The notes under the pieces were generated by a model. That model did not search any database and was not told where the DNA came from. It saw nothing but the letters and a program-made list of their open reading frames with translations. Below, piece by piece: positions 240 through 23,283 of a stretch of 27,991 nt of DNA (its first letter is position 1; each line of letters opens with the position of its first letter). Source of the DNA: a virus (Duplodnaviria > Caudoviricetes). The position numbers and the translations under genes are program-made. The DNA is taken from positions 1 to 27,991 of IMG/VR virus record IMGVR_UViG_3300029226_000043; one strand, given 5' to 3'.

Positions 240-247
240 GATAAATA
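240..247 (+). promoter_or_regulatory. T4-late-like promoter motif GATAAATA
   Basis: Intergenic, 6 nt before the leader hairpin of the 373 gene. The same motif recurs at most gene boundaries. Confidence 0.7.
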
Positions 248-253
248 ACTGTA

Positions 254-331
254 GCACTTAATTAATTGCTGTTATTGGCTCTCACAATGTGTTCATAATA
301 TATTCACCAATAACAGCAATTAATTAAGTGC
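254..331 (+). promoter_or_regulatory. 25-bp perfect inverted repeat with 28-nt loop in the 5' leader of the polymerase-like gene
   Basis: GCACTTAATTAATTGCTGTTATTGG (254-278) pairs with CCAATAACAGCAATTAATTAAGTGC (307-331). Confidence 0.85.
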
Positions 332-372
332 GTAAGTCGCCTGAGAAACGACTATAAACAAGGAATTATATT

Positions 373-2076
373 ATGAACCAAATTACAGCATTCACAAATC
401 ACGCCCAACGCTTACTCATACGCGATTACCCGGAACTAACAGAAAAACATCGTACTAAAATAATAGCTAGATACATTAAAGCGGTAACGACAGAGATAAA
501 CTCGAAGTTATGCCAATTTATGTTAGACAATGATCATTACATAGTAAGCACTTATACCATAAATCAACACAGTAGAAGCACCATAAATGGTAAACAAGTC
601 TGTATGCATAAATGGTTTACAGATAACTGTCCACTAATGCAGATAGTGAATTTAGGCAGTAATATAAAGAAGCAGTACACAGAGATTAAAATGACCTACC
701 ACCTAGAGATTATGATAGATGCTATATACGCAGAGCTATTAACCAAATCAGATTTAACTGATGATGAAAGAAATGAATACGCAGCGCAATTATACACACC
801 TGAGTTTTATAGCATTATAGGAAATGATACTAATGAAGTTGCTTATACGCCAATTGACGTTGATTCGTTACACGCATATATAATTTATATTAGTAACCAA
901 ATTACACAAGTTCAGTACGCATCCAAAGGGATAAACACACTAAAACGCAGGCTTAAAGAAGCAAAGCGGATTTATAGCATTGCGCGAGTGTTTAATGGGC
1001 AACTGCCGCTGATAATTAATAACAGTGAGTTTGGTCGCAAGTACTACAGAGGGCCAAACTTACAGTCGGTGAGTAAGTCAGTACGACACGCGGCGTTAGG
1101 CAGGTGCATTGAATATGACATTGAAAACTCAGTTTATGCGTGGCGTTACACAGAGACTATGCGCATATCAACTGATGCAGGTGTAGAGATAGCACTGCCT
1201 GCGACGTTAACCTATTTAGAGCGTAAATCTGCTATTCGGGAAGAGATAGCACTACATACATTCGAAGACTCGCAGCACTCAACTGAAAGCGCAGTGAAAA
1301 TAATTAAAGAGGCATTTACAGCTATTGGGTTCGGCGCACAAGGCTCAACAAAGACAGCCGTATGGTACATTAACGGCGAAAAGAAAACGCAATCACTTAA
1401 CGCAATCATATACAGCCCAAAACATAGAAAACTATTTCTTGAGCATCCATTCGTTTTACAGTTTATAGAAGAGCAGAAAGTGATCAGTAGCATTATATTT
1501 GAGTTTCATAGCAAAGACGCCAAGCTTACAAAGATGAAGTGCCTACAAACAGAAGCAGGTAAGTTAAGCAAGCCCAAGACATTAGCATACTTCTATCAGC
1601 AACAAGAACGAGTGCTATTAGATACAGCAGTACAACAACTAGACGCAGGCAATATACTACTAACAGTACACGATGCGTTTTATATTAAAAATGCAGATGC
1701 CGAAGGAATCAAGGCTGCGAAGCACGAGCTAAAGCAGTACAACAAAGAGCTTGATTTGGGCAAAGTTACACATACAGCAAATCAAGTCACAATGCAGCCT
1801 CAGGCAGATATTGATAAAGCATCACATCTGCATCGCATCACCCAGGAAAAGCGCAACGCAAAAGAATACATTCCTGACAGTCCACTAGTTAAATTACGTA
1901 TTAAAACCGACAAGATAGTAAGCGTTGAATCAATGTTGTATGAACACGGCAAGCAAGCAGCTGATACAACTTATATAACACAGATTAAAGACCAGATACG
2001 CAAAGATGAGTCAATCAACACAACTCGTGCCGACATAACTAAAATATTAAAGGAACGCAAATCGCAACGACAGTAA
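373..2076 (+). CDS. Family-A/T7-superfamily polymerase-domain protein (TV-Pol-like putative primase-polymerase)
   Basis: Motifs in the right order: FGRKYYRGPNLQ (cf. PolA TGRLS..PNLQ), motif A YD249IENS, motif B K312EAFTAIGFG, motif C LLTVHD434AF. RBS AAGGA present. No exonuclease motifs recognised. Confidence 0.7.
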   Translation: MNQITAFTNHAQRLLIRDYPELTEKHRTKIIARYIKAVTTEINSKLCQFMLDNDHYIVSTYTINQHSRSTINGKQVCMHKWFTDNCPLMQIVNLGSNIKKQYTEIKMTYHLEIMIDAIYAELLTKSDLTDDERNEYAAQLYTPEFYSIIGNDTNEVAYTPIDVDSLHAYIIYISNQITQVQYASKGINTLKRRLKEAKRIYSIARVFNGQLPLIINNSEFGRKYYRGPNLQSVSKSVRHAALGRCIEYDIENSVYAWRYTETMRISTDAGVEIALPATLTYLERKSAIREEIALHTFEDSQHSTESAVKIIKEAFTAIGFGAQGSTKTAVWYINGEKKTQSLNAIIYSPKHRKLFLEHPFVLQFIEEQKVISSIIFEFHSKDAKLTKMKCLQTEAGKLSKPKTLAYFYQQQERVLLDTAVQQLDAGNILLTVHDAFYIKNADAEGIKAAKHELKQYNKELDLGKVTHTANQVTMQPQADIDKASHLHRITQEKRNAKEYIPDSPLVKLRIKTDKIVSVESMLYEHGKQAADTTYITQIKDQIRKDESINTTRADITKILKERKSQRQ

Positions 2077-2078
2077 AT

Positions 2079-2086
2079 GATAAATA
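2079..2086 (+). promoter_or_regulatory. T4-late-like promoter motif GATAAATA
   Basis: Immediately after the 2076 stop. It is followed only by about 80 nt of structured non-coding sequence and a terminator. Confidence 0.6.
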
Positions 2087-2091
2087 ACATA

Positions 2092-2173
2092 GTGAGACAC
2101 GTCATGTTATAACCTCTCTGTTAATTGTTTGTCTCACAGCCCAACTCGCTCCCCAGCAGTTGGGCTTTTTTTT
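2092..2173 (+). ncRNA. Candidate ~80-nt small RNA with an anti-RBS loop
   Basis: Promoter motif upstream, 8-bp stem GTGAGACA/TGTCTCAC, and a 30-nt loop whose reverse complement reads AACAATTAACAGAGAGGTTATAACATG (SD + ATG). Ends at an intrinsic terminator. Confidence 0.5.
2138..2173 (+). terminator. Rho-independent terminator
   Basis: AGCCCAACT/AGTTGGGCT stem followed by a T8 tract. Confidence 0.85.
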
Positions 2174-2212
2174 GGATAAAAATCCTCCAAAAGGTAAAAA
2201 TTAGGAAAGTTT

Positions 2213-2220
2213 GATAAATA
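2213..2220 (+). promoter_or_regulatory. T4-late-like promoter motif GATAAATA
   Basis: Located after the terminator, 24 nt before ATG 2245 and upstream of SD GAGAGG. Confidence 0.75.
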
Positions 2221-2244
2221 ACTATAACAGAGAGGAACAATAAT

Positions 2245-2694
2245 ATGAAACACGTACAAAGAAACCAAATACGCAGACGCCAGACAGATCACGGAACAAC
2301 ATACGTTATGGGCGAGCAAGTCCGCAGTGAGATGATCGCACTCACTGCTCAATTAAAAGAGCTGGTCCAAACCAATCAGCTACCGACTAAATGGAATAAG
2401 AACGATAAAGACGCACTCGAGACAATGGATCACTGGTTAGCAGATGATCGAGATTTTAGCGATAAACAAATGGTTAAATTCTTTCGAATGCTACATAAGT
2501 TCGGTTTGCCAGATAACTTCAATGGATTAGCAAAGCAACTTGATTGGGAAATTGGCCGAAATATAAATCGCAGCGAAATGTATAACATTATGCAAGAGCG
2601 CAGAGACAACGATCGGTTAGCCAAAGTTGAAGGTGATCGCAATCTCGAAGTTCGATCACTCGCAACATCAACATACAATAGCTTATTCGAATAG
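2245..2694 (+). CDS. Hypothetical protein (149 aa), C-terminus TSTYNSLFE
   Basis: Strong SD, own promoter motif, globular-looking composition. No family recognised. Confidence 0.8.
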   Translation: MKHVQRNQIRRRQTDHGTTYVMGEQVRSEMIALTAQLKELVQTNQLPTKWNKNDKDALETMDHWLADDRDFSDKQMVKFFRMLHKFGLPDNFNGLAKQLDWEIGRNINRSEMYNIMQERRDNDRLAKVEGDRNLEVRSLATSTYNSLFE

Positions 2695-2739
2695 GTCAAT
2701 TTTGCCGAAATGGTCGTCCGATACCGATTATGAGCGTAA

Positions 2740-2755
2740 TATAAATATATAAATA
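2740..2755 (+). promoter_or_regulatory. Two tandem exact T4 late consensus TATAAATA
   Basis: TATAAATA at 2740-2747 and 2748-2755, upstream of ATG 2791. Confidence 0.65.
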
Positions 2756-2790
2756 CATAACACTTAACTATAACACAAGAGAGAGATAAA

Positions 2791-3384
2791 ATGAATAAAA
2801 TATTATTAGGAATAACACTAGCTATATTATTACAGGGCTGTAGTTCAGACGATGAATCAGTCTATATTGACCCATACGAATATAGTGACCCTTTCGCATT
2901 CGATGAATTTGGTAATGATGATAAAGATGACTTTGGCATCATCTTCACACCATCAACAGGACCAAGAACAATCGAAAACATTACCCCGAATATAACCCCA
3001 GGCACAGTGCCACTAGGTGATTATGGCGAGGTGATTCTGTCATGCGGAACAATTCACACCGATCCAGTAGTTGTACAGTACACAATGAATCTACAATACG
3101 TTTGCGAAATAAATTATCGCGCAAAACAAGATATTAGATACGATGATTATGATCCAAGCATAGACGACTTTCTCGAGTACAAAGTTACAGTACACGCGTC
3201 AAGAATTAATGGTGTACTTCATAGCAACACGACTCGTATTACACTACCAAGCGGCACGTTCGCAGTAAACATAAAGCTGAGCGTAGAGGAGTTGTATAAC
3301 GGCTCATACCAATACATTTACGGGCAACAAAGCAGAAAACAATTTTCGGTAATTGGCGGAACGCTTACAGAAATACAACTTTAA
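2791..3384 (+). CDS. Putative lipoprotein (candidate superinfection exclusion)
   Basis: Signal peptide MNKILLGITLAILLQG-C with lipobox LQGC and Ser at +2. Function is inference. Confidence 0.75.
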   Translation: MNKILLGITLAILLQGCSSDDESVYIDPYEYSDPFAFDEFGNDDKDDFGIIFTPSTGPRTIENITPNITPGTVPLGDYGEVILSCGTIHTDPVVVQYTMNLQYVCEINYRAKQDIRYDDYDPSIDDFLEYKVTVHASRINGVLHSNTTRITLPSGTFAVNIKLSVEELYNGSYQYIYGQQSRKQFSVIGGTLTEIQL

Positions 3385-3417
3385 AGTAGGTCGCCCGATC
3401 CAAGATATGATCATAAG

Positions 3418-3447
3418 CTGTACGCTCAATAACAGAGGAGCGTACAG
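3418..3447 (+). promoter_or_regulatory. 10-bp hairpin occluding SD and first base of the GTG start
   Basis: CTGTACGCTC (3418-3427) pairs with GAGCGTACAG (3438-3447). SD GAGGAG is at 3435-3440. Confidence 0.6.
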
Positions 3448-3830
3448 TGCTAAACAAATTCATAAACAAAGTCCAATTATCCGTATTACATAATTACACC
3501 GAAGAATCCGAAGAGTCACAATTCTTCATTGATAAAATCCAAGAAATAACCAATTGCATTAACAAAATGCCAGTTACATACGAAACAGAAGAATTACAAG
3601 ATCCGATTGTGTACTTGCATTATTTTCATTCAGTAGGTGATGCGTACATTACAGAAAGAGATATACACCCTGAGCAGAACCAAGCCTTTGGATACATTAA
3701 TATAGGAATGGGAGGCGAGCTTGGATACATTAGTATAAAAGATTTAATACAGAACGGATTTGAACTTGATTTATACTTTACCCAAAGGAACCTCAGTACA
3801 ATAATAGGAGAACACAATGACGAAAGTTGA
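3447..3830 (+). CDS. DUF2958-like protein
   Basis: Pattern YLHYF...YITERD...AFGY...GELGYISIKDL...ELDLYF resembles DUF2958. GTG start with SD. Confidence 0.7.
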   Translation: MLNKFINKVQLSVLHNYTEESEESQFFIDKIQEITNCINKMPVTYETEELQDPIVYLHYFHSVGDAYITERDIHPEQNQAFGYINIGMGGELGYISIKDLIQNGFELDLYFTQRNLSTIIGEHNDES

Positions 3831-3978
3831 ACAAGCAACAGCTATATTAACCAAAGCCCGTAAAGCAAATAACGATATAACCCGAAAGGAAGTTATTGCT
3901 CTTATAGTTAAACGAATGAAGTGCAGCCCACAAAGAGCCGGGGGTCACTATCAAGCAGCAGCACGTATAAAAAAATAA
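3817..3978 (+). CDS. Small basic protein (53 aa), possible DNA-binding; not in ORF track
   Basis: SD AGGAG, then MTKVEQATAILTKARKANNDITRKEVIALIVKRMKCSPQRAGGHYQAAARIKK*. It fills the gap between co-oriented genes. Confidence 0.7.
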   Translation: MTKVEQATAILTKARKANNDITRKEVIALIVKRMKCSPQRAGGHYQAAARIKK

Positions 3979-4040
3979 ATAAATCCCTTTCATTTTCTTC
4001 TTTTGGACTAAACTAATATTTGAATCCACAGGGAGAACCT

Positions 4041-4442
4041 ATGACTGAATTTAATTACAGCCTTTCATTTACATTTATGGATAATGAAAAAGCCAAAGAC
4101 TTTGATGCACGCATTGTCCTCGAAGATAGTAATGATACATGGTGCTTTGGTAATGGTGTTGAAATAAGCATATTCAATGAGAATAATTATGTTGAGGATA
4201 GCATTAGATCCTTAAAATCTGTAGTCCGTACGTTACAAAATGATCCGCTAACGCATGTTACAAGTTTATCTATAACCATTAGGATACATTGCTCAGACAA
4301 GATAACTAAGCAATTTGGGCTTTTACTGCCAGCTTCAACCGCAGAAGTTGTACTAACAAAAGTGCTAACGGATATGCTCAGCATTAGGACATACCTCCCT
4401 GAACTAATAACCTTCGCGGACAAGATAAAAGAATACGATTAA
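4041..4442 (+). CDS. Hypothetical protein (133 aa)
   Basis: Start moved from TTG 4020 to ATG 4041 because SD GGGAG precedes it. AATAAATA at 3974-3981 is upstream. Confidence 0.7.
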   Translation: MTEFNYSLSFTFMDNEKAKDFDARIVLEDSNDTWCFGNGVEISIFNENNYVEDSIRSLKSVVRTLQNDPLTHVTSLSITIRIHCSDKITKQFGLLLPASTAEVVLTKVLTDMLSIRTYLPELITFADKIKEYD

Positions 4443-4467
4443 CTCTACAACACAACCGTAACCCTAC

Positions 4468-4490
4468 AAGCAGCTTTATAGCTGCTTTTT
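4468..4490 (+). terminator. Rho-independent terminator
   Basis: AAGCAGCT-TTAT-AGCTGCTT followed by Ts. Confidence 0.65.
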
Positions 4491-4527
4491 CTTTGGAGAA
4501 CGTTAAACCCTCTTTATTTAGTTTATT

Positions 4528-4539
4528 GATAAATAAATA
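4528..4539 (+). promoter_or_regulatory. T4-late-like promoter motif (overlapping GATAAATA/AATAAATA)
   Basis: After the terminator, before SD GAGG and ATG 4556. Confidence 0.7.
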
Positions 4540-4555
4540 TAACAGAGGAACAATA

Positions 4556-5044
4556 ATGAACAAAGAAGAAAAAGCAAAAGCCAACCGAAGGGAATGGTAC
4601 AACAATAACAAAGATAAGATGAAAGCCTATAGTGATAAATGGTTAAGCGATCCAGAGAACCGAGCAAAACGAACTGCTTATATGAAGGAATACGCAGAAA
4701 AGAATAAAGAGAAAAGAAAAGAGTCTAATAAAATATACGCTCAGAAGAACCGTGAAATGCTTACAAAGAAACATTATGAGTACGTACAAAAGAATATAGA
4801 GGCAGTACGAACTTATCAACGCATCTACCACCAGAAACGTAGACTCAGACTAAAAGCCGAACAAGCATATAGTGAGCTTATGACAATGATTGATGAACTA
4901 TCACCAGCATTAACACCGGTTGAGATAAACACTATTACATCAGCATTAACAGAGTACGTAGACAACAATATACATAGGAATACAGTACGACAACTAATGC
5001 GAGGCGCTAGTACTATTACAGATGCGCTAACAACGGATTTTTAA
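4556..5044 (+). CDS. Lys/Arg/Tyr-rich helical-repeat protein (162 aa)
   Basis: ATG 4556 has an SD (track start TTG 4493 does not). Repeats like YxxKNxE resemble the helical arms of phage HNH proteins, but no HNH motif is present. Confidence 0.75.
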   Translation: MNKEEKAKANRREWYNNNKDKMKAYSDKWLSDPENRAKRTAYMKEYAEKNKEKRKESNKIYAQKNREMLTKKHYEYVQKNIEAVRTYQRIYHQKRRLRLKAEQAYSELMTMIDELSPALTPVEINTITSALTEYVDNNIHRNTVRQLMRGASTITDALTTDF

Positions 5045-5056
5045 ATGGATTTTTAA

Positions 5057-5326
5057 ATGGATCACAACATAACGGATCACAACATAACGGGCGAGCTTAC
5101 GGACGAGCTTACGGACGAGCTTAATATAGCAATAGCACAATTAAAAGTAGTTGTAGACGAAAGAAAATCACTCTCCGAAAGGGTACAAAATCTACAGTCT
5201 ATGGTTGATACAATGGCGAAGAATGAAGAAGCAAATAGAGTCGTAGACAAGATACGCTGTCGTAGGAACGCATTCATAACCATTGTTACAAGCGCGGTTT
5301 TCCTGGCACTATTTGCTGTTGTATGA
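5057..5326 (+). CDS. Coiled-coil protein with C-terminal transmembrane helix
   Basis: Heptad-like middle region and hydrophobic end AFITIVTSAVFLALFAVV. The 5' end is built from 15-bp and 12-bp in-frame tandem repeats. Confidence 0.6.
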   Translation: MDHNITDHNITGELTDELTDELNIAIAQLKVVVDERKSLSERVQNLQSMVDTMAKNEEANRVVDKIRCRRNAFITIVTSAVFLALFAVV

Positions 5327-5390
5327 TCAATATTACAGATTGATAACTGTTATATAACTATTAGTGCAATGGGTAGGTGATGGATTACGA

Positions 5391-5451
5391 GATGCCAGTA
5401 CAATGGATTGTAATGAGGTGCGTTGAAGGTCGATGCCATTGTACTGGCATC
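5391..5451. repeat. 16-bp perfect inverted repeat, 29-nt spacer
   Basis: GATGCCAGTACAATGG (5391-5406) pairs with CCATTGTACTGGCATC (5436-5451). Confidence 0.85.
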
Positions 5452-5484
5452 AGAGCGGAATTGATTATTAGTCCAGGGCCGGAA

Positions 5485-5629
5485 TGGTGATGGATATGGT
5501 TATGGTGATGGTGATGGTGATGGTGACGAATCTGACACCAAATTTCAGCCTCCACCACCCGCCCAAAGATAGACTCAAAGCCCAGCACAATGGCAATCCA
5601 CCCGCAATCACCACCCGCAATCACCACCC
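5485..5629. repeat. (TGGTGA)n tract facing GCAATCACCACCC repeats
   Basis: Hexamer tract at 5485-5526. The 13-mer occurs at 5604-5616 and 5617-5629, with a partial copy at 5593-5603. Confidence 0.75.
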
Positions 5630-5917
5630 AGAGATAGACCCACTCACCTTGTCAACCATTTAGAGCATACCCGTCATAACTCGCATATAAGCAACGATCA
5701 TAACAACAAGCAGCCTACGTACAGAGACACTGTTATATAGCTGTAAGACGCTTATATATTCAATGATCAAAGACTTACAGCACTATAAGTCACCATTCAG
5801 ATCAGCCTCACCATAACCCAGCATAACTCACTGTAAGTACTGCGAATACCGTCTTGACACAATAATACTGTAATGAACTGTGCGTACACGGTGAATAACA
5901 GTGAATAACAGCCGGAT

Positions 5918-6152
5918 CCAAACTATCGCCCGGCGATCAGAGATATAACACAAGAATGGCGGTTATAGCCGGTTATTCATATAAAACCAAAGTCTGCCCG
6001 CGCAGATCAGAGATGAACGTAGGAATGGCATCACAGCCGTTCTTATAGAGAAAACCAAAGTCTGCCCGCACAGATCCGAGATATAACACAAGAATGGCGG
6101 TTATAGCCGGTTATTCATATAAAACCAAAGTCTGCCCGCACAGATCCGAGAT
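5918..6152. repeat. Array of 32-bp direct repeats separated by 36-38-nt related spacers
   Basis: AAAACCAAAGTCTGCCCGCRCAGATCMGAGAT at 5983, 6051 and 6121, with a degenerate copy at 5918-5944. Spacers 5945-5982 and 6083-6120 are identical. Confidence 0.9.
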
Positions 6153-6238
6153 GAAACACCACATAACACCGTGATTCACCGTGATTCACCGTCATATACA
6201 CGGTTAAATCTATTTAATACATTTTAATACATTGATTT

Positions 6239-6246
6239 GCTAAATA
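6239..6246 (+). promoter_or_regulatory. T4-late-like promoter motif GCTAAATA
   Basis: 26 nt before the TerS ATG, upstream of SD AGGAG. Confidence 0.7.
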
Positions 6247-6272
6247 ACTATGAATAACACAGGAGAGCGTCA

Positions 6273-6800
6273 ATGGTCACTAAAGCAGACCCAATCACTG
6301 GCAAACGTCAGAAGACCGGCGGTAGATTACCCGGCCAGAAGAACCGTCACAACCGTATAAGCAAAGAGGTAAAGGAATTGATCCTAGACCGTGAGTACTT
6401 ACGCATTGAGCAATTCCTCGATAAGAATATGACACCCCTCACTTATCTCTTCAACGTATTCAACGATACCCGTAGGCATACAGATGATCGTATTAAAGCA
6501 GCAATAGCCTCACTTCCGTACGTTCATGGTAAGAAACCCGCGCAAATGGAATTGAGTGGCCGAGATGGTAAGGATCTTAACCTCGGCAATGATAGAGCGC
6601 TACGTACGCTGGATGGGCTGCTATTCGACGCTATTAAGCAGATTGATGCGGATGATGAGTTAAGCAACGCAGAGGATAGCAACGTCTTACACGATAAGTT
6701 CGAAGCGGATAGCAGCATAACAACTGAGTACGCAGAGATTACAGAGACGGATACACAGAGAGCAGAGGCAGTACTACAGCAGGTAAAAGATAGCAAATAA
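6273..6800 (+). CDS. terS: Terminase small subunit
   Basis: KTGGRxPGxKN N-terminal motif, RIKAAIASLPYVH and ELSGRDG. Position is upstream of TerL. Confidence 0.8.
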   Translation: MVTKADPITGKRQKTGGRLPGQKNRHNRISKEVKELILDREYLRIEQFLDKNMTPLTYLFNVFNDTRRHTDDRIKAAIASLPYVHGKKPAQMELSGRDGKDLNLGNDRALRTLDGLLFDAIKQIDADDELSNAEDSNVLHDKFEADSSITTEYAEITETDTQRAEAVLQQVKDSK

Positions 6801-6803
6801 CCT

Positions 6804-6962
6804 ATGACTACAGACCATCCACATAAGTCAAAGCCACTGTCAGAGACCGAGATAGCACGGTGCGACATAGCCGAGGCCGAGCCTAGCAATCCTATAACAG
6901 TACAAGCACTCGAGGCGCATATTAATTTGATAGTTCAATGGATACAAGATGAATCAGCTTAG
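6804..6962 (+). CDS. Possible 52-aa ORF between terS and terL; not in ORF track
   Basis: ATG 3 nt after the terS stop, with a stop overlapping the terL start. No clear SD. Confidence 0.4.
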   Translation: MTTDHPHKSKPLSETEIARCDIAEAEPSNPITVQALEAHINLIVQWIQDESA

Positions 6963-8277
6963 TAAGCTAGAGGAATTACAGCTACTACCGCCGGATCAAC
7001 GCAAGACATTCCTCAGTCACCTCGACAATAACACTGCTGAAGACTTATTGTTTGACATTAAATTTAAAGGAAGGCCGAAGCAGCAATACCCAGTCGGTAA
7101 TTGGGATACGTGGATGATACTTGCGGGGCGTGGGTTCGGTAAGACATTCACTGGCAGTAATACAGTCAACAACTGGGCCTTAAATGATCCAGGTTGTACT
7201 ATCGCCATCGTTGTAGAGACAGCAAAGGATATTACACGGGTACTCATAGAGGGCAATGGAGGGATACTAAAACAGAGCAATCCAAACTTCACGCCAGTCT
7301 TCATAAGCGGGGTAAAGAACTATTTTAAATACCCGAATGGAAGCCTAGCTCTCGTATATAACGGAAGTGAGCCAGATCAATTGCGTGGCCCGGAACATCA
7401 TTATGCTTGGGTAGATGAATTAGCCAAGATGCGCTACCAGCAAGAAGTATGGGATATGCTGCTTATGGGGATGCGATTGGGTGATCATCCAAAGGTGTTA
7501 GTCACAACAACCCCAAAGCCGACAATACTAATTAAAAGTCTATACAAAGATCCTGATACAGTCGTTACAGAGGGCAGTACTTACGAAAACAGTTCGAACC
7601 TACCTGATTCATACTTGGCGCAGCTCAAGAAGAAATATGATGGTACGAGACTGGGTCAACAAGAGCTATACGCAAAGATACTTGACGACAATCCAAATGC
7701 CTTATTTAAATCGGCGGATATAGAGTTAACTCGTATTACAGCAAGCAGTAGACAACGCAAACTGTTAATTGAGAGTCTCGATAGGGTAGTCGTAGCAGTT
7801 GATCCGGCTGTAAGTGCTAACGAAAACAGTGATGAGACTGGCATTATAGTAGCAGGAAGGAAGGGTGACAATGGATACATCATAGCAGATGGGTCATTGA
7901 AGGGCACGCCGAACGAATGGGCCGCTGCTGCCGTTCACTTATACAAGCTAAACACCGCCGACAGGATAGTAGCAGAGAAGAACCAAGGGGGATTGATGGT
8001 AGAGTCAACCATCCGCACTGTAGATAAATTCCTACCCATCACCCTCATACACGCTTCCAAAGGCAAAGCATCACGAGCAGAACCCATAGCGGCCCTATAC
8101 GAGCAGCACCGTGTCCACCACGTTGGATTATTCGTTGACCTTGAGGAACAGATGGTTTCGTTCGATCCATCACTCGGCAATAAACAAAAGTCACCAGACA
8201 GACTCGACGCACTCGTATACGCATTGGCAGAGTTGTTTGAAAACGATAAGGAAGAGGCCTTCATATGGGCTATGTAA
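6949..8277 (+). CDS. terL: Terminase large subunit
   Basis: Walker A AGRGFGKT, Walker B AWVDE, TTTP coupling motif, and nuclease motifs VAVDPA and SPDRLDA. Confidence 0.97.
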   Translation: MNQLSKLEELQLLPPDQRKTFLSHLDNNTAEDLLFDIKFKGRPKQQYPVGNWDTWMILAGRGFGKTFTGSNTVNNWALNDPGCTIAIVVETAKDITRVLIEGNGGILKQSNPNFTPVFISGVKNYFKYPNGSLALVYNGSEPDQLRGPEHHYAWVDELAKMRYQQEVWDMLLMGMRLGDHPKVLVTTTPKPTILIKSLYKDPDTVVTEGSTYENSSNLPDSYLAQLKKKYDGTRLGQQELYAKILDDNPNALFKSADIELTRITASSRQRKLLIESLDRVVVAVDPAVSANENSDETGIIVAGRKGDNGYIIADGSLKGTPNEWAAAAVHLYKLNTADRIVAEKNQGGLMVESTIRTVDKFLPITLIHASKGKASRAEPIAALYEQHRVHHVGLFVDLEEQMVSFDPSLGNKQKSPDRLDALVYALAELFENDKEEAFIWAM

Positions 8278-8288
8278 GGAATCGTAGT

Positions 8289-8296
8289 CATAAATA
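8289..8296 (+). promoter_or_regulatory. T4-late-like promoter motif CATAAATA
   Basis: In the 39-nt terL-portal gap, upstream of SD AAGGA. Confidence 0.75.
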
Positions 8297-8316
8297 ACTA
8301 AAAGGAATTAACACTT

Positions 8317-10523: not shown

Positions 10524-10532
10524 GGAAATAAT

Positions 10533-11135: not shown

Positions 11136-11138
11136 CTT

Positions 11139-11378
11139 ATGAATATATTAACAAAGCCAATATCCAGCACAGAAATAACTGAGCAGTACGACAAACTTAC
11201 AGATGAACAATCACCAGTGTTTTATATAGGTGAAGCGGCGATTGGATCATTACCCAGTGCCGCAGCATGGCGCATAAAGCGAATAACAGTTAGTGGCTCA
11301 ATAGCAACAACGGTCTGGGCAGATAGCACCGAATCATTTAACAAGATTTGGGACAACAGAACTGGATACACATACTAA
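11139..11378 (+). CDS. Small hypothetical phage protein (79 aa)
   Basis: YIGEA..GS..S.AAWRIKRI...WA....F..IWDNR..Y pattern recalled from phage structural regions. Tightly packed with its neighbours. Confidence 0.75.
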   Translation: MNILTKPISSTEITEQYDKLTDEQSPVFYIGEAAIGSLPSAAAWRIKRITVSGSIATTVWADSTESFNKIWDNRTGYTY

Positions 11379-13908: not shown

Positions 13909-13911
13909 ATA
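13881..13911 (+). promoter_or_regulatory. Two T4-late-like promoter motifs GATAAATA
   Basis: At 13881-13888 and 13904-13911, upstream of SD AAGGA and ATG 13928. Confidence 0.7.
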
Positions 13912-13927
13912 ATTAAAAGGAATTTAT

Positions 13928-15052: not shown

Positions 15053-15080
15053 GCGTCACACTAAACATAAAGGAAATATT

Positions 15081-16247: not shown

Positions 16248-16266
16248 CCGTTACACAGCAGTACAG

Positions 16267-16295
16267 AAAAAGCATCCTTCGGGGTGCTTTTTTTT
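16267..16295 (+). terminator. Rho-independent terminator with C(UUCG)G tetraloop
   Basis: AAAAAGCATCC-TTCG-GGGTGCTTTTTTTT directly after the capsid gene. Confidence 0.92.
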
Positions 16296-16297
16296 GG

Positions 16298-16305
16298 GCT
16301 AAATA
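16298..16305 (+). promoter_or_regulatory. T4-late-like promoter motif GCTAAATA
   Basis: Immediately after the terminator, 4 nt before ATG 16310. Confidence 0.75.
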
Positions 16306-16309
16306 CAGT

Positions 16310-16465
16310 ATGAAGATAACCATAACTCTCAATGCCGCACCGGATTTAGTCTTTGCCGTGCCTAGTAATATTGCGAATGAACTTGTCGAAAGAGGTTTAG
16401 CAAAGATCCGCAATGATAAATATTTAACAGCCGTTGAAGGCCCAGAGGAAATAAAATGCAAATAA
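16310..16465 (+). CDS. Small capsid-linked protein (51 aa), probably leaderless; not in ORF track
   Basis: MKITITLNAAPDLVFAVPSNIANELVERGLAKIRNDKYLTAVEGPEEIKCK*. The A..LV..G.A pattern is typical of small post-capsid genes. No SD. Confidence 0.65.
   Translation: MKITITLNAAPDLVFAVPSNIANELVERGLAKIRNDKYLTAVEGPEEIKCK
16415..16422 (+). promoter_or_regulatory. T4-late-like promoter motif GATAAATA
   Basis: Inside the small ORF, 33 nt before ATG 16456. Confidence 0.5.
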
Positions 16466-17019
16466 CCAGAACTTCGGAGCCGGCAGTTGAGCCAGTTTCG
16501 TTAACAGAATTAAAAGATCACTTGCGAATAGAGACAGCAGATGATGACACTTATTTAAATCAACTTATAACGGTCGCCCGCGCAAGTTGCGAGACTTATA
16601 CATCACGATCACTCATAACACAAGAGTGGACGATGCTTATGACAAACTATCCAGCCAAACAGTACATTCCGCTCGGATACGGGCCGATCCAATCAATAAC
16701 GTCAATAACATCGTACTTGGCGGATGGCACCACAGAGGTTATGGATAACACAACGTACTATTTAACCGACACTAATATGAATGGCAAAGCGGCACTAAAT
16801 TATAACGAATCCTGGGATTCATACACTATGCGCCCAATCAATAACGTTGAGGTTGTATTTGTCGGTGGTTATGGACTTACAGGGGCAGAGGTGCCAGCAC
16901 CATTGCGTCAAGGAATCATAGCTTATGCGGCGTATATGTATGAGTGCAATGATACAGAATCCGAGATGCCGGATGTAGTTAAATCGTTATGGTCACCATA
17001 CAGAATTATAGTGTTGTAA
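16456..17019 (+). CDS. Head-tail connector (gp6/phiE125 gp8-like adaptor)
   Basis: PAVEPVSLTELKDHLRI...DDTYL...E.YT.RSLITQ and VPAPLRQGI...YE. Confidence 0.92.
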   Translation: MQITRTSEPAVEPVSLTELKDHLRIETADDDTYLNQLITVARASCETYTSRSLITQEWTMLMTNYPAKQYIPLGYGPIQSITSITSYLADGTTEVMDNTTYYLTDTNMNGKAALNYNESWDSYTMRPINNVEVVFVGGYGLTGAEVPAPLRQGIIAYAAYMYECNDTESEMPDVVKSLWSPYRIIVL

Positions 17020-17022
17020 ATT

Positions 17023-17361
17023 ATGAAAAAGTGTATTAAATCAAGAGACTTAAATAGCAGAATAACATTCGAGAATGAAGTTAAAGTTAGTGATGGCATC
17101 GGTGGCAGCACAACAAGCTGGGCACTGTATGCTAATAGATGGGCGAAAGTTGTAGCTGTTAGCGGATCACAGAAGTGGCGCGCAGATAGACTCGAAACAA
17201 ACGTTAGTCATCTCATTACAATACGTTATGACGCTGCTGTACACGACGAGATGCGAATAGTGTTTGACAGCCGAGAGTTTTCGATCATTTATATAATTAA
17301 CAAGGATGAAGGCCAGAAAAGATATATGGAGATTCATTGCGTTGAAGGCGGCGTTCAATGA
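17023..17361 (+). CDS. Head closure/stopper protein (SPP1 gp16-like)
   Basis: LNSRITF...DGIGG...W...WAKV...ITIRY...MRI pattern, in the expected position. Confidence 0.9.
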   Translation: MKKCIKSRDLNSRITFENEVKVSDGIGGSTTSWALYANRWAKVVAVSGSQKWRADRLETNVSHLITIRYDAAVHDEMRIVFDSREFSIIYIINKDEGQKRYMEIHCVEGGVQ

Positions 17362-17798
17362 GTGTAACCATAACCGGCATTAAAAAGCTCGAAAGAAAGC
17401 TAAAGAAGTTAGTTAAAGATTCAGAACAAGAATTGATCACTGCGTTAACTACGTCAGCATTGGTTGTAGAGGGTGCCGCAAAGACAAAGATTCAACGTGG
17501 CGTAGCAACTGGCCGCGTCTACACAAGAAACGGTGTCACTCATCAAGCTTCGGCGCCAGGACAACCGCCCGCAACAGATACTGGTGCGTTAGCATCATCT
17601 ATTACACATAACGTTGACAAACAGCAGATGACAGCAGAGATAGGGTCGAACCTCGTATACGCAACACACCTCGAATTTGGCACAATCAATATGCAAGCAA
17701 GGCCATTTATGACACCGGCCTATCAAGAGAGCAAGGCTAAAATAGCCAAGGAATTTAAAAAGGCGATCAACGACGCTATAAAGAAAGGAATTAAATAA
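17358..17798 (+). CDS. HK97 gp10-like neck/tail component
   Basis: SAPGQPPATDTGALASSI and YATHLEFGT..M.ARPFM.PA. Confidence 0.9.
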   Translation: MSVTITGIKKLERKLKKLVKDSEQELITALTTSALVVEGAAKTKIQRGVATGRVYTRNGVTHQASAPGQPPATDTGALASSITHNVDKQQMTAEIGSNLVYATHLEFGTINMQARPFMTPAYQESKAKIAKEFKKAINDAIKKGIK

Positions 17799-18196
17799 TG
17801 GACGCACAACTCGCAGTACAGACAGGAATATATTCAGCACTAACAGGTGACGCCCCGCTTATGGCTCTCGTAACTGGCATATACGACATAGTGCCAGAAA
17901 AACAAGTATTCCCCTTCATAACTATAGGGGAGATGACACAGGTAGATGATAGCACAGCATCAGTCAGCGGAATGGATTTAACACTTATGATTCATATTTG
18001 GGATCAGGACTTGAGTCGCTATAAATTAAAAGAGATAGCCGGTGAGATTTATCGTGTATTACACAATCAAAACTGGGCAATAGCAGGAATGAATTTAGTC
18101 AATTGCAGGTTCGAATTTAGTGACGTACTGGGTGATCCAGATGGCAGAACGCAGCACTGCTTACAACGTTTTAGGATCATAACAGATCAAGTATAG
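17798..18196 (+). CDS. Tail terminator (DUF3168-like)
   Basis: Q.GIYSAL.GD..L.ALV.GIYD.VP...FPFITIG pattern, immediately before the tail tube gene. Confidence 0.88.
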   Translation: MDAQLAVQTGIYSALTGDAPLMALVTGIYDIVPEKQVFPFITIGEMTQVDDSTASVSGMDLTLMIHIWDQDLSRYKLKEIAGEIYRVLHNQNWAIAGMNLVNCRFEFSDVLGDPDGRTQHCLQRFRIITDQV

Positions 18197-18197
18197 T

Positions 18198-18205
18198 CAT
18201 AAATA
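18198..18205 (+). promoter_or_regulatory. T4-late-like promoter motif CATAAATA
   Basis: TAGTCATAAATAAC is identical to the portal-gene site. Heads the major tail gene leader. Confidence 0.75.
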
Positions 18206-18276
18206 ACGTTACAAACTACTTAGGCAACTAAGTCACTTAGTCAGACTAAGTAAACAAATATATAAGGAAGAAAATT

Positions 18277-18690
18277 ATGGCAGCACAAAAAGGATCATTA
18301 TTCTTAGTCGGCATCGGTGATGGCGGCGGACCAGAAGCATTTACAAACATCGGTTCAGCCCGGTCAACATCAATGAGTCTCAACAACGAGACAGTTGACG
18401 TTACAGCTAAAGACAGCAGCGGATGGCGTGAGCTATTGGCAGGCGCAGGTGTTACATCTATGAGCATCTCGCTCAGTGGCGTATTTAAAGATTCGGCTGG
18501 TGAAGAAGCAGTTCGGTTAGCAGCATTTAACAGCTCTATCGACAACTGGGAACTATCTTCAGGCAATGGTGACACATTCCTCGGCGCATTCCAAATTACA
18601 TCATACGAACGTACTGGCGAATATAACGGCGAAGAAACTTTTAGTGTTTCACTCGAAAGTGCAGGCGTTGTTGTAGCTACATTAGCATAA
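18277..18690 (+). CDS. Major tail tube protein (TP901-1/GTA-like)
   Basis: MAAQKG...LNNETVDVT.KDS.GWRELLAGAGV.S.S.SGVF...GAFQITS.E..GEYNGE.TFS.SLESAG. Confidence 0.95.
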   Translation: MAAQKGSLFLVGIGDGGGPEAFTNIGSARSTSMSLNNETVDVTAKDSSGWRELLAGAGVTSMSISLSGVFKDSAGEEAVRLAAFNSSIDNWELSSGNGDTFLGAFQITSYERTGEYNGEETFSVSLESAGVVVATLA

Positions 18691-18697
18691 GTGATTT

Positions 18698-18726
18698 GAC
18701 AGCAGCGGTTATTGATCGCTGCTGTC
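18698..18726 (+). terminator. 10-bp hairpin after the major tail gene (weak terminator or mRNA stabiliser)
   Basis: GACAGCAGCG pairs with CGCTGCTGTC. The T-tract is poor. Confidence 0.5.
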
Positions 18727-18739
18727 GTTGAGAGGAATT

Positions 18740-19096
18740 ATGAATAAATTTAGGAATGAAGTACAACACGATTTAAATGATAATACGTATAAGCTACGTG
18801 GTACATTTGACGTACTTGTAAAGCTCGAAACTGAGCTTGGGATGAGCGTGCCGATGATGGTAGAGTCATTAGCAACTGTCGGGCTTACACTATCTCAGTC
18901 GGCAGCTATATTAAAATATGGGCTTATTGGCTCAGGCAGCAATAAAGAGATTGAGGTTATAAAGGAAGATATAATGGAAGGTGGCGTTACACGAGCCGCA
19001 TACGTTTGTTCCGAATTTCTGTCTTCAGTACTTTGGGGTGGCAACGCCCAGGCTAAAAAAAAGATAGCAATGAAGAAGATGAACCAAAAGGCATAA
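18740..19096 (+). CDS. Tail assembly chaperone (gpG-like)
   Basis: ATG 18740 follows SD GAGAGG. Lies between tail tube and TMP, with a YKLR.TF..L..LE.ELG pattern. Confidence 0.85.
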   Translation: MNKFRNEVQHDLNDNTYKLRGTFDVLVKLETELGMSVPMMVESLATVGLTLSQSAAILKYGLIGSGSNKEIEVIKEDIMEGGVTRAAYVCSEFLSSVLWGGNAQAKKKIAMKKMNQKA

Positions 19097-19326
19097 CCGA
19101 TTATATTCCGAACCTTATTGGATTTGCAATCGGCGTACTTCATCTACCACCAGAAGTGTTCTGGAATATGACGGTTGCGGAATGGAACCTTTCATACGAA
19201 TATATAAATCCAGACACCGAACTTAACTCAGATACAACGGATCAATTTATTCCGTTTAGCAAAGAGGAACAGGAAGTGCTTGACAATATTCAGGAAGATA
19301 TATGGCAAAGGCAATACAAGAAGTAG
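18740..19326 (+). CDS. Tail assembly chaperone gpGT-like, via -1 frameshift at 19057-19063
   Basis: Slippery A AAA AAG. The -1 frame is open to TAG 19326 and encodes IGVLHLPPEVFWNMTVAEW, a typical GT-segment motif. Confidence 0.85.
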
Positions 19327-21221
19327 TTGTTAAATTAGTCGCAGACACCAAAGGGCTAAATCAGGGGTTAACCAAAGCCACTCGGACAACTAAAAACTTC
19401 GGTAAAAAAGCTGCGAACGACATGCAGTACTTCAAGAAGAGCATCATAAGCGCAAAGGCTGCTCTCATTGGATCAGCTGGCATAGTTATAGCACTTGGAT
19501 TAGCCGCAACTAAATTCGCAGCAATGGGCGCTGCCGCAATAATGGCTGGTGATGAGATAGGTAAAATGTCCAGCAAATTGGGCATCACCGCAGAAGAACT
19601 TCAGGAATACCAGATCGTTGCAGACGCAGCAGGTGTCTCGACAGAAACATTCAATATGGCCTTCCAGAGATTTACACGCCGAGTAGGTGAAGTAAAGAAT
19701 GGTACAGGCGAACTAAAGACTACTTTCGAAGCACTTGATATTTCTGTCAGAGATGCAAACGGCAACTTCAGATCAACAACAGACTTATTCAGAGAGTTTG
19801 GCACAAAGATAGCCGACGTTGATGACGTGTCGCAACAATTAGCATTCACTATGAAAGGCATGGATAGTGAAGGTGTTGCGTTGATCAATATGTTTAAGCT
19901 CTCTATCAAGGAACAAGATGAGTTGATAGCCAAAGCGAAAGAATATGGTGCTGTCATCTCAAATGAAGTTATTGCGAGTATGGAAGAATACTCGACCGAA
20001 CTTGGATTGATAAACAAAGGTACGAAAGCACTGTCTCTTGAGACAGACGCAGCACTTGCAGGATGGACACTTAAATGGGCATCACTTAAAAATGAGGCAA
20101 TTAAATATTTTAACGTGTTAGCAGTTGGGATGGGCGCAGACAATAATATTAAAACCGCAACTCATAAACTTAAACTACTGGAAGATCAATTACAGAACCT
20201 TAAAGATAAAGCCGATGATGAATCGTGGCTGAGTAGTATGACTGGGTTTGGCGCGAGCCAGATGAAGCGTATGACCGCGTCGGTAGCAGATGCAAGACTA
20301 GAGCTAGAGTTATTACAAGCGGTTGCAGAAGAGACAGCCAATAACAAGCAAGTCGATCCAGAGGCGCCATCTGCAACTAAACCCCAACTGGATGCCACGG
20401 CAACGCTTACGTATTATGAGAAGTTGGAGCAGGCAGCAAGAGATTATACAGCCGAAGTTGAGAACGCTTGGGAAGCAACAGAGCAGGCTGATATAGCATT
20501 CCAGAATGGCACAATAACAGCAGAAGAGTACGCACGTATACAAGAAGATATTAACAAAGTATTGCTGGAAAACGTAGAGGCTACTGACGCACTTGCTGAA
20601 TCAACAACTGAAGTAGCTGCTGTAACTCGCACCGCATCACAGACAATGGCCGACAACTGGATGGATTCAACGGCACGTATGGATGATGCATTTGCAAGCG
20701 CAATGAGCAATTCAGCAGACGCACTTACAGACTTTGTAATGACAGGCAAGTTGAGCTTTGCGGATTTAGCAAACTCTATCATAGCAGACTTAATACGGAT
20801 ACAGATACGTCAACAGATAGTCGGAATGTTAGGTGCCGGGCTCGGCAACATCAGTACAGCATCACAGTTCGGAACCAATGTTGGGTCGCAGCAAACATCA
20901 ATGATACAGGCACAGAACGCAGGGTTTGCGGGTGGTGGACGAGTCCAGCCTCATAGCTTACAGATGGTCGGCGAACGCGGGCCAGAGTTATTGCGAATGG
21001 GCGCATCCGGTGGCAGTGTCGTTAACAACAGTGACGCATCGGGCAGTGGCAGTATTCCAGTTACAGTGAGTATAAAGAATGAAGGCACAGCACAAACACC
21101 ATCATCCGCAACAGCATCTATGAAACCAGATGGGTTAGTTGTAGAGGTTGTACTGAATGACTTGCGACGTGATGGTCCAATCTCACAAGGGATGAAAAAG
21201 ACATTTAGAGTGTCTCGATAA
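19302..21221 (+). CDS. Tape measure protein (639 aa)
   Basis: VVKLVADT N-terminus, Ala-rich helical body, FVMTGKLSFADLANSII and FAGGGRV...VGERGPEL. Confidence 0.95.
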   Translation: MAKAIQEVVVKLVADTKGLNQGLTKATRTTKNFGKKAANDMQYFKKSIISAKAALIGSAGIVIALGLAATKFAAMGAAAIMAGDEIGKMSSKLGITAEELQEYQIVADAAGVSTETFNMAFQRFTRRVGEVKNGTGELKTTFEALDISVRDANGNFRSTTDLFREFGTKIADVDDVSQQLAFTMKGMDSEGVALINMFKLSIKEQDELIAKAKEYGAVISNEVIASMEEYSTELGLINKGTKALSLETDAALAGWTLKWASLKNEAIKYFNVLAVGMGADNNIKTATHKLKLLEDQLQNLKDKADDESWLSSMTGFGASQMKRMTASVADARLELELLQAVAEETANNKQVDPEAPSATKPQLDATATLTYYEKLEQAARDYTAEVENAWEATEQADIAFQNGTITAEEYARIQEDINKVLLENVEATDALAESTTEVAAVTRTASQTMADNWMDSTARMDDAFASAMSNSADALTDFVMTGKLSFADLANSIIADLIRIQIRQQIVGMLGAGLGNISTASQFGTNVGSQQTSMIQAQNAGFAGGGRVQPHSLQMVGERGPELLRMGASGGSVVNNSDASGSGSIPVTVSIKNEGTAQTPSSATASMKPDGLVVEVVLNDLRRDGPISQGMKKTFRVSR

Positions 21222-21224
21222 ATA
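21217..21224 (+). promoter_or_regulatory. T4-late-like promoter motif GATAAATA
   Basis: Overlaps the TMP stop, 5 nt before ATG 21230, which has no SD. Confidence 0.7.
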
Positions 21225-21229
21225 ATATT

Positions 21230-21586
21230 ATGGCTATCACATCCTTTCAGTTCACAAAGATCCTTACAGGCGCTTATACACAAACACCAGTTGACGCAAC
21301 TCGTCGCACAGAGATGAGTGATGGTGTCGCTAAGCAAGCTACACGATTTAACAAATCATATATAAATCATAAAATGAGTTATTTAATGACTGCTGCTGAG
21401 TTTGCGTCATTTAAAACGTGGTGGACTGGGTCAAGTGGTTATGGCGCATTAGCATTTAACTTTGCGAACCCAACGACAAATACAACCGTAGATGGTCGCA
21501 TTCCAGATGGCTTATATACAGCAACACCAAACGACAGTGAATGGTTGTATTGGGTCGTGGATATTACAGTCGAGACTTTGGAATGA
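21230..21586 (+). CDS. Distal tail protein (lambda gpM-like)
   Basis: RTEMSDG.AKQ.TRF...F..WW...GA..FNF.NP pattern; first gene after TMP. Confidence 0.75.
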   Translation: MAITSFQFTKILTGAYTQTPVDATRRTEMSDGVAKQATRFNKSYINHKMSYLMTAAEFASFKTWWTGSSGYGALAFNFANPTTNTTVDGRIPDGLYTATPNDSEWLYWVVDITVETLE

Positions 21587-22209
21587 GCGTTACGACATTT
21601 ATATATGCGCTATATGATCCGCGCGACCCAGAGCAATACAGATACATCGGCAAAGCAAACGATCCTGATGATCGGCTTAAAACCGGGCACTTACGGGGAA
21701 CAAAAGCAGTAACATACAAATCGAACTGGATTAAAAAGTTATTAAGGGAAGATGCTATACCAGAAGTAATTATTGTAGCTGAAGTACTTACATGCGAATG
21801 GCAGAACGCAGAAACACATTTTATAGCTCTGTACAAAAGACTCGGGCATAAGTTAACAAACTCAACAGACGGTGGTGAAGGTGCCGGCAGTTTTATGTTA
21901 GCTGAAACAAAACGTAAGATTGGCGAAGCAAATAAAGGTAAAAAGCATTTACCACGCTCAGAAGAAACCCGAGCGAAGATGAGTGCATCTCATAAAGGCC
22001 GCAAACACACTGAAGAGGCAAAACGTAAGATTGGCGAATACAATAAAGGTAAAAAAAGGCAACCAAAAACAGAAGAAATGAAACGTAGATTAAGTAAAGC
22101 ACTTAAAGGAAAGAAAATACCAACAGTAACTTGCCCGCATTGTAGCAAGACAGGCGGCGGTGGATCAATGCAACGCTGGCACTTTGATAATTGCAAGGAG
22201 GCATTATAA
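21583..22209 (+). CDS. Free-standing GIY-YIG homing endonuclease with NUMOD3 repeats
   Basis: FIYAL.DPR...RYIGK, E..FI...LTN.TDGGEG, repeats SEETRAKMS.SHKG.KH, and terminal CPHC...RWHFDNC. Start at the ATGA overlap. Confidence 0.9.
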   Translation: MSVTTFIYALYDPRDPEQYRYIGKANDPDDRLKTGHLRGTKAVTYKSNWIKKLLREDAIPEVIIVAEVLTCEWQNAETHFIALYKRLGHKLTNSTDGGEGAGSFMLAETKRKIGEANKGKKHLPRSEETRAKMSASHKGRKHTEEAKRKIGEYNKGKKRQPKTEEMKRRLSKALKGKKIPTVTCPHCSKTGGGGSMQRWHFDNCKEAL

Positions 22210-22680
22210 ATGCCATATACAGAAAACTTTAAAGAAACAGTCAACGCAGTCAACGCAATTGAAGTGCCGCTGGCTCTATTAGAGATTAACCATCCTGGGT
22301 TAACCTCACCGGTCCGTGTTGTAAATGACAATGATGATTTAACTCATAACGGAAATTTATTCCAGGCCTTTGGGTTTGAGATTGATAAACCCAACCAACC
22401 AGAGTCCGGACAACCAGAAGCTAAAATAGTGATGGATAACGTCGGCAAAGACTTAATGGAATGGCTTGAGGTTAGTTCGGGCGGCAGTGGCGCTACAGCA
22501 ACCATAAAACAAGTACTTCGATCAACCCCGAATGTTGTTGAATACGAAATACAGATGGTACTAACAAATATAACCGCAACAACTTCAAAGATTACAGCAA
22601 GACTATCATTTCCAGATGTTTACAACAGAAACGGAATGCCAACAACTTACAATAAATCAACTGCTATCGGCCTCTTTTAG
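22210..22680 (+). CDS. Minor tail protein (DUF1833 / gpL-like)
   Basis: LLEINHP.L..PVRVVND..DL...G..F.AFGF...P...I.MDNV pattern, in the expected position. Confidence 0.85.
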   Translation: MPYTENFKETVNAVNAIEVPLALLEINHPGLTSPVRVVNDNDDLTHNGNLFQAFGFEIDKPNQPESGQPEAKIVMDNVGKDLMEWLEVSSGGSGATATIKQVLRSTPNVVEYEIQMVLTNITATTSKITARLSFPDVYNRNGMPTTYNKSTAIGLF

Positions 22681-23090
22681 TGGCGCACTGGACGGATACG
22701 TACGTAGGGCGGCCCTACATAGTTGACGAATATGATTGCGGTCATTTAGCAGAAGACGTACTTAATGAATTTAACGACGAGCAAGTTACACTGCCAAGTC
22801 GCTCATCATTTAATGTTAAATCACTCAGCAAAGACATAGCAGATCAGAAAGAAACTTATTGCGACCCCATCACTGATGCGGTAGATGGCGATATAGCGTT
22901 AATGAAGTGCAGGGGTCTTTATCACATCGGCATTTATTTTAGCATCAGTACAAAGCAATACGTATTACACAATATGAAGAACGTTGGATCGGTCGTGATC
23001 CATAACCTTAGAGATTTACCAAAATACGGAATGACGCTCGAGGGCTTATACCGGTACAGGCCGCATAACCTCAGAAGAAACACGGCGTAA
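22680..23090 (+). CDS. NlpC/P60 tail tip peptidase (gpK-like)
   Basis: YVGRPY...YDC, GDIALM, HIGIY and VLH catalytic pattern. GTG start overlaps the previous stop. Confidence 0.88.
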
Positions 23091-23280
23091 ACTTAGTGAA
23101 GCTCACAAAGGCAAGAAACACACAGAAGAAACTAAACGGAAGATCAGTGAAGCGGGCAAACGCAGAAAGCCAATAAGCGAAGAAACACGAGCCAAGATAA
23201 GTAAGGCAGGAAAAGGCAAGAACAAAGGTAAAACATGGAAACTCGTTGATGGTAAACGTGTCTGGTTGCGTCAGTCATAA
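23035..23280 (+). pseudogene. NUMOD3-repeat remnant of a homing endonuclease (no start codon, no nuclease domain)
   Basis: The frame reads ...[70 protein letters not shown]. An in-frame TGA lies at 23032-23034. Confidence 0.75.
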
Positions 23281-23283
23281 ATA
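23276..23283 (+). promoter_or_regulatory. T4-late-like promoter motif CATAAATA
   Basis: AGTCATAAATA, third copy of this 11-mer, upstream of SD AAGGA and ATG 23302. Confidence 0.75.

Follow-up and report, generated by a model that had tools for sequence, protein, structure and literature searches.

A polymerase-bearing tailed phage with T4-type late-promoter words: a candidate satellite of T4-like phages

Why should a small phage that encodes its own HK97-type virion carry the late promoter word of phage T4 ahead of its genes, and what would read it? The question is raised by a stretch of 27,991 nucleotides (the window) from the IMG/VR virus record IMGVR_UViG_3300029226_000043 (Caudoviricetes). 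Window positions 1–27,991 correspond to bases 7173–35163 of the 36,331-base record, labeled G001 here. The original prediction, made from the window alone, described an HK97-type siphovirus wired with T4-type late promoters and expressed only when a T4-like phage supplies late transcription. Our analysis indicates that G001 is probably a satellite virus, the lytic genes of which would be read by the host RNA polymerase with the gp55 of a co-infecting helper. The element has its own virion genes and a polymerase-like gene (POL), it carries the T4-type late word and no sigma factor was detected; together these features make a satellite of a T4-like phage likely.

The 18 copies of [A/C]TAAATA reported for the + strand of the window were all recovered at their stated positions, compared with three copies on the − strand. 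ATAAATA alone occurs 15 times on the + strand and never on the − strand. As originally noted, nearly all sites lie just upstream of genes: the zone 8–50 nucleotides (nt) before start codons, which makes up 5.2% of the window, contains 14 of the 18 (binomial p 3e-15). Seventeen are within 150 nt of a start codon, the exception being the site at 2080 (165 nt from the next start). Deep in coding regions no copy was observed, versus 5.4 expected from synonymous shuffles (P 0.002). TTAAATA, which had been said to occur there, indeed shows the opposite pattern, with seven deep copies (3.35 expected) and none of eight upstream of starts. The motif is present at −60 to −8 in 11 of 34 genes, compared with a mean of 1.4 for shuffled upstream regions (maximum 6 in 2000 shuffles). 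ATAAATA is the top upstream 7-mer of the window; other words of five A and two T have at most seven upstream copies, and the one with seven, TAAATAA, overlaps ATAAATA. Two starts in the gene list (9801 and 11375) were off by 3 nt, with no motif close to either. The upstream excess is far above AT-rich background, and this check left the earlier reading standing.

Sites are found also ahead of the polymerase-like gene (241) and the accessory open reading frames (ORFs; 2214–4533), as had been noted. Those at 3975, 13905, 15045 and 21218 overlap the last codons of the preceding gene, and those at 13882 and 16416 fall 26 and 49 nt before its end. A restart of transcription behind a terminator had been claimed for three sites. 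The arrangement is present at 2214 and 4529, where terminator-like hairpins (2152–2164 and 4468–4487) are located 40–50 nt ahead; at 16299 a hairpin (~16272–16287 plus T8) is visible in the sequence, but was absent from the scanner output.

As described in PMC1524935 and PMC7892883, T4 late promoters, the readers of which are gp55, gp33 and gp45, resemble these sites in their TAAATA core, the A or C before it, a position ~30 nt before ribosome-binding sites and an operon-by-operon arrangement. This part of the T4-type assignment stands. However, the strict octamer TATAAATA accounts for just two of the 18 sites (at 2740 and 2748), the usual forms being GATAAATA, CATAAATA and GCTAAATA. G001 also differs from T4 in having no gp55 match and in carrying the word ahead of the polymerase and, in related chromosomal islands, of a recombinase.

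The missing sigma gene, originally noted for the window, holds for the whole record: neither gp55 nor Sigma70_r2 matched anything across its 36 kb, and this second check likewise left the earlier reading standing. The gp55 profile was negative in all 24 records scanned, G001 among them, and positive for T4. Sigma70_r2 likewise gave no match in the 24 records, with a T4 control that was positive just weakly (E 0.004), and a search for phrog_12791 was negative for G001 and G003. Unlike a T4-like phage, G001 thus has no recognizable gp55 of its own. Nor does it have the make-up of a temperate lambdoid phage. Among the 44 G001 proteins scanned (three small tail-end ORFs were not covered whole) we found no repressor, primase, SSB or endolysin family, and no lambdoid switch, antiterminator or late activator, initiator or helicase loader, or lysis cassette, of which divergent ones could escape the scan. 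AlpA also had no match in G001.

POL is the single gene common to all 20 virus records compared. It had no match in Pfam or PHROG, yet has the thumb-palm-fingers fold of family A DNA polymerases with the motif A Asp, the motif B Lys and the motif C His-Asp; the invariant residues are D249, K312 and H433-D434. An additional N-terminal domain (~140 amino acids, aa) had no confident match. Structure neighbors of POL in the ESM Atlas include D5_N clusters from Preplasmiviricota (TM 0.41–0.49). General scans, in which D5 was not searched as a family, gave no helicase match in G001 or four circular relatives, and DnaB matched none of the 24 records (T4 positive).

A search with the POL alignment yielded 34 other IMG/VR loci and 63 bacterial genome loci, as well as 294 stretches from metagenomes, 80 of which were retained. 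Of the 35 virus records, 20 were analyzed at full length; they were selected for being circular or near-complete. In all 20 of these small phage records the motif is enriched upstream of genes (p 8e-3 to 1e-13), and copies deep inside genes are fewer than expected (16 versus 83). Their virion modules differ: HK97-type in G001, podovirus-type in G002 and another siphovirus set in G003, G005 and G007. The enrichment ratio over doublet-shuffled upstream regions was 3.5 for POL viruses and 6.0 for bacterial loci. For 16 mostly AT-rich loci related by their capsid it was 1.5, and for 80 further loci 1.4, but 79 of these 80 are too GC-rich to inform. The motif tracks POL and not the capsid. The description as an HK97-type siphovirus with T4-type promoter words fits G001, but the HK97 virion is interchangeable, and the constant part is POL with the motif. 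The satellite reading itself is partly supported by the enrichment, by the missing sigma and gp55 matches and by the linkage to POL, but not in its tie to HK97. Two distant POL relatives from SAR324 and Deltaproteobacteria records (L116, L117) show no motif enrichment, which suggests that only one branch of the POL family has the promoter wiring.

In gp55-encoding phages the same word is prominent. According to PMC1524935, most T4-like phages have (A/T)ATAAATA and Aeh1 has CTAAATA. TAAATA ranks first among upstream words in G001, the other POL viruses, the islands, T4 (60–160 kb) and three uncultured gp55-positive records, and second in RSP15 and Vibrio phage D479. In six of the seven phages encoding gp55 it holds one of the top two ranks; in the seventh, Acidovorax phage ACP17, it ranks 63rd while CTATAA and TATAAT lead, and the late promoter of this phage may differ. 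Because TAAATA was part of the pattern by which the three uncultured records were chosen, one site per record is guaranteed, but not the 15–110 found. The complete, gp55-positive 372-kb record G034 favors GATAAATA, like the window. Distances from motif to start codon agree between POL elements and gp55 phages; wider flanks, profiled over positions −4 to +11, gave no discrimination. The jumbo phages Motura (W03) and BcepSaruman (W04), which had no gp55 match, have GTAAATA sites in the first 200 kb of each, with CGTAAATA or AGTAAATA in seven of nine upstream TAAATA sites. These phages may use a divergent late sigma, and they are a caution that the gp55 profile can overlook readers of similar words.

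Most of the bacterial POL loci are islands in the genomes of Limnohabitans and further Burkholderiales; for 15 of them the sequence retrieved includes a tRNA-Asn. Their common gene clusters include no virion gene. With G001 they have in common the large integrase, the small integrase and DUF6641. In the islands the motif is located ahead of POL (45/51), the small integrase (33/39) and two short ORF families (51/51), and never ahead of the large integrase (0/19), DUF6641 (0/44) or five other clusters. This placement is as expected if a helper triggers excision and replication. In the metagenome loci, which were fetched after the pattern had been fixed, the motif precedes POL in 63 of 68 cases and other long ORFs in 4 of 60; this set overlaps in part with the earlier loci, and related loci do not count as independent events. 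Cultured strains carry POL islands, among them Limnohabitans sp. Bal53, Rim28 and 2KL-17 and Zwartia hollandica LF4-65. In many island POL ORFs a second GCTAAATA is found ~90 nt inside the 5' end (e.g. L077:9877), which points either to a promoter within the gene or to a start codon called too far upstream. Single Burkholderiales metagenome-assembled genomes can hold three or four separate POL loci (L066, L078, L090 and L108 in one; L091, L099 and L107 in another). Three such genome records titled Bordetella parapertussis (L064, L069, L076) contain Limnohabitans-like islands, and the species label looks doubtful.

The features of the window are as follows.

1–205: two tandem direct repeats of ~120 bp, the first starting 32 nt before the window (G001 7140–7377)
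241–247, + strand: GATAAATA site, 132 nt before POL
254–331: perfect inverted repeat of 25 bp, immediately behind the 241 site in the leader of POL (G001 7426–7503)
373–2076, + strand: POL, a 567-aa family A polymerase-like protein
2080–2172, + strand: GATAAATA site after the POL stop, then the terminator-like hairpin 2152–2164
2214–5326, + strand: accessory ORFs of 149, 197, 127, 53, 133, 162 and 89 aa, without sigma match
2214, 2741, 2749, 3975, 4529 and 4533, + strand: motif sites among the accessory ORFs
5330–6239: non-coding stretch ahead of the terminase genes, with three ~70-bp repeats at 5935–6155
6240–8277, + strand: GCTAAATA site, terminase small (6273–6800) and large (6949–8277) subunit genes
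8290–13908, + strand: CATAAATA site, HK97-type portal (8317–9804), Mu F-like protein, four orphan ORFs
10533–13908, + strand: the four orphan ORFs after the Mu F-like gene (200, ~79, ~734 and 109 aa)
13882–15052, + strand: two GATAAATA sites, prohead protease S78 (13928–15052)
15045–16247, + strand: GCTAAATA site at 15045, HK97-fold major capsid protein (15081–16247)
16272–18196, + strand: terminator-like hairpin, sites 16299 and 16416, head-tail adaptor, head closure, neck, tail terminator
18199–21221, + strand: CATAAATA site, tail tube, chaperones, tape measure protein
21218, + strand: GATAAATA site 12 nt before a minor virion gene
21218–23090, + strand: GIY-YIG/NUMOD3 endonuclease (21583–22209), DUF1833 minor tail gene, 136-aa ORF
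23277–27804, + strand: CATAAATA site, central tail fibre J (23302–27804)

With portal, S78 protease, capsid, connectors, tail tube, tape measure and J, G001 has the complete set of an HK97-type siphovirus. The protease carries an additional N-terminal domain of ~150 aa (13928–14380); the three pieces searched from this domain and the orphan ORFs gave no match. Each of the ~120-bp repeats at the start of the window contains TGTGGATAA, which we take to be a DnaA-box-like word from its consensus. The repeats are likely the replication origin. A DnaA box precedes POL in just three of 77 relatives, so that the box is not conserved. The 25-bp inverted repeat could control POL expression or be part of the origin. 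Between the site at 2080 and the following hairpin there is no + strand ORF of 40 aa, and a short non-coding transcript of ~85 nt is possible there. The ~900-bp non-coding stretch (5330–6240) also contains low-complexity GGTGAT runs and nested inverted repeats.

G001 is classed as having direct terminal repeats. The repeat of 239 nt lies within a tail-fibre gene, itself repetitive, that runs on over the junction, and the circle therefore closes in gene order. CheckV completeness is nevertheless 48%. Outside the window the record contains tail-fibre genes, two small membrane-like ORFs, a DUF6641-like ORF and the two 120-bp repeats. Two divergent tyrosine recombinases, also outside the window, flank the 3' part of a tRNA-Leu(CAG). 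Both integrases and the DUF6641-like ORF are without the motif, and an extended −10-like TGTTATAAT points toward the large integrase.

Based on these arrangements we propose the following life cycle. The element would wait as a prophage at tRNA-Leu, with its large integrase read by host sigma70 and integration host-driven and constant. Late in a helper infection gp55, either with gp33/gp45 or at the basal level at which it acts alone (PMC7892883), would switch on POL and the virion operons together. Excision (in the islands), replication and virion synthesis would then start late in the helper infection without any repressor, the helper late sigma taking the place of a repressor switch. POL would prime and copy the circle from the repeat origin, helicase and lysis would be supplied by host or helper, and the progeny would be packaged in the element's own particles.

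Two objections weigh most against this scheme. A tyrosine integrase is absent from 22 of 24 virion-bearing records, and such records would need co-infection, as MiniFlayer does. Moreover, the linkage of motif and POL is also expected if POL itself reads the motif. In that case POL would be a minimal single-subunit RNA polymerase or a transcribing primase-polymerase, the likeness to T4 would be convergent and the phages would be autonomous; we regard this as unlikely.

It is less probable still that a host sigma factor or activator reads the sites as −10-only promoters, or that an unrecognized small protein of the element serves as specificity factor, no helper being needed. Many small ORFs are indeed orphans, and the GTAAATA sites of the two jumbo phages without gp55 match are in line with such a reader. 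However, no small gene is common to the whole POL family. In bacterial loci the motif occurs 8–13 times per 10 kb in the three 1-kb bins around POL and 0.5–2.7 times at ≥3 kb away, so that in these loci the motif is no general host promoter. If the host read the genes for excision and replication constitutively, stable islands in cultured strains would also be hard to explain.

A gp55 response that is merely optional, serving an autonomous temperate or lytic phage as escape or booster under host sigma70 shutoff and the islands mainly as an anti-phage alarm, would suit the many virion-bearing members without integrase and the HNH or endonuclease VII genes of several relatives, but it is improbable to a similar degree, as sigma70-like sites in window 1–20000 are fewer than chance (39 versus 55.4 in shuffles) and no repressor, antiterminator or activator family for an independent program was found.

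HNH or endonuclease VII genes are frequent, together with Dps-like genes, in the POL phages G003, G005, G007 and G013–G020. The Dps-like proteins have ~40% identity to that of an uncultured gp55-positive record.

The Burkholderiales islands (L056–L111) also contain two short basic ORFs that diverge from each other, both preceded by a TAAATA of their own (e.g. L063:12037–12746 and L100:12044–12693). The short island ORFs begin with MRFxEI or MRIxEL. The same start pattern picks three T4 ORFs beginning with MKTYQEFIAE or MKTFKEF, which are presumably internal proteins. T4 internal proteins have a 10-residue capsid-targeting sequence, as described in PMC9026906. In the three uncultured gp55 records such starts occur behind TAAATA in 13 of 184 cases versus 21 of 936 (p 0.002, a partly circular comparison). 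No direct homolog of the short island ORFs was found, and starts of the MR..E type are rare in virion-bearing members (5/831). Going by this resemblance, the short ORFs may serve to bring island proteins into the heads of the helper, or they may block head assembly.

How does the satellite proposed here compare with known ones? In P4, late promoters respond to P2 Ogr. Like PICI, cf-PICI, PLE, PICMI and P4 as described in PMC10803314, PMC10690885 and PMC12822802, G001 is predicted to be integrated and helper-induced; PICMI and PLE, according to these sources, have virulent helpers, and in PICMI int is constitutive while excision and replication genes are helper-activated by a route left unexplained there. 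All these families need helper virion parts, whereas head and tail genes are both present in the window. Nor did AlpA or a primase, which PICI, cf-PICI and PICMI carry, turn up among the G001 proteins scanned. In lifestyle the islands without virion genes are similar to PICI-type families, but with POL and the TAAATA word. The Streptomyces satellites MulchRoom and MiniFlayer, as presented in PMC10690885, likewise have their own capsid and packaging genes and a large virulent helper, with an integrase in one member and none in the other. Unlike G001 with its POL and complete tail, they have neither replication genes nor a full tail module according to that paper, the main text of which never uses the word "promoter". 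Its full tail and polymerase place G001 outside PICI, cf-PICI, PICMI and the MulchRoom/MiniFlayer group, and they leave transcription as the predicted dependence.

The closest likeness in working is to the virophages Mavirus, Sputnik and Guarani, which build their own virion. As described in PMC6723459, Mavirus has its own polymerase, and the helper late promoter precedes many or all virophage genes, replication genes included. G001 differs in its bacterial host, its HK97-fold tailed virion and in what it would borrow, a sigma factor for the RNA polymerase of the host. In view of the HK97 capsid and the bacterial tRNA-Leu fragment, G001 is not a virophage; the likeness is in working only. By its description in PMC2579912, TV-Pol resembles POL as a minimal family A polymerase of 400–600 aa with two acidic catalytic residues, found in mobile elements beside integrases. 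POL differs in its additional ~140-aa N-terminal domain, and no D5 helicase match was seen in G001 or the relatives scanned, where D5 was not searched as a family.

Neither satellite viruses nor promoters activated by a helper are new in kind. A satellite using gp55 was not found in the literature searched, which excluded subscription papers and supplements. We lean, with some reserve, toward the view that bacteria have their own counterparts of virophages, in a family that is widespread and so far undescribed. At its core would be a module of polymerase and promoter, combined with at least three unrelated virion sets or residing in virion-less islands of freshwater Burkholderiales, that would hand its lytic program to the late sigma of jumbo and T4-like phages. 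A direct test is within reach, since the islands are present in cultured Limnohabitans and Zwartia and transcription with T4 gp55 has been reconstituted in vitro (PMC7892883). How a virulent helper activates a satellite is a question posed in PMC10803314, and an essential late sigma of the helper acting as the sensor would be one concrete answer. If the proposal is true, some small "complete" phage genomes from metagenomes would not be autonomous, and a simple sequence test would find them. What known bacterial satellites take is virion components or replication functions; a tailed phage that is complete and borrows nothing but transcription would bring the virophage lifestyle to bacteria.

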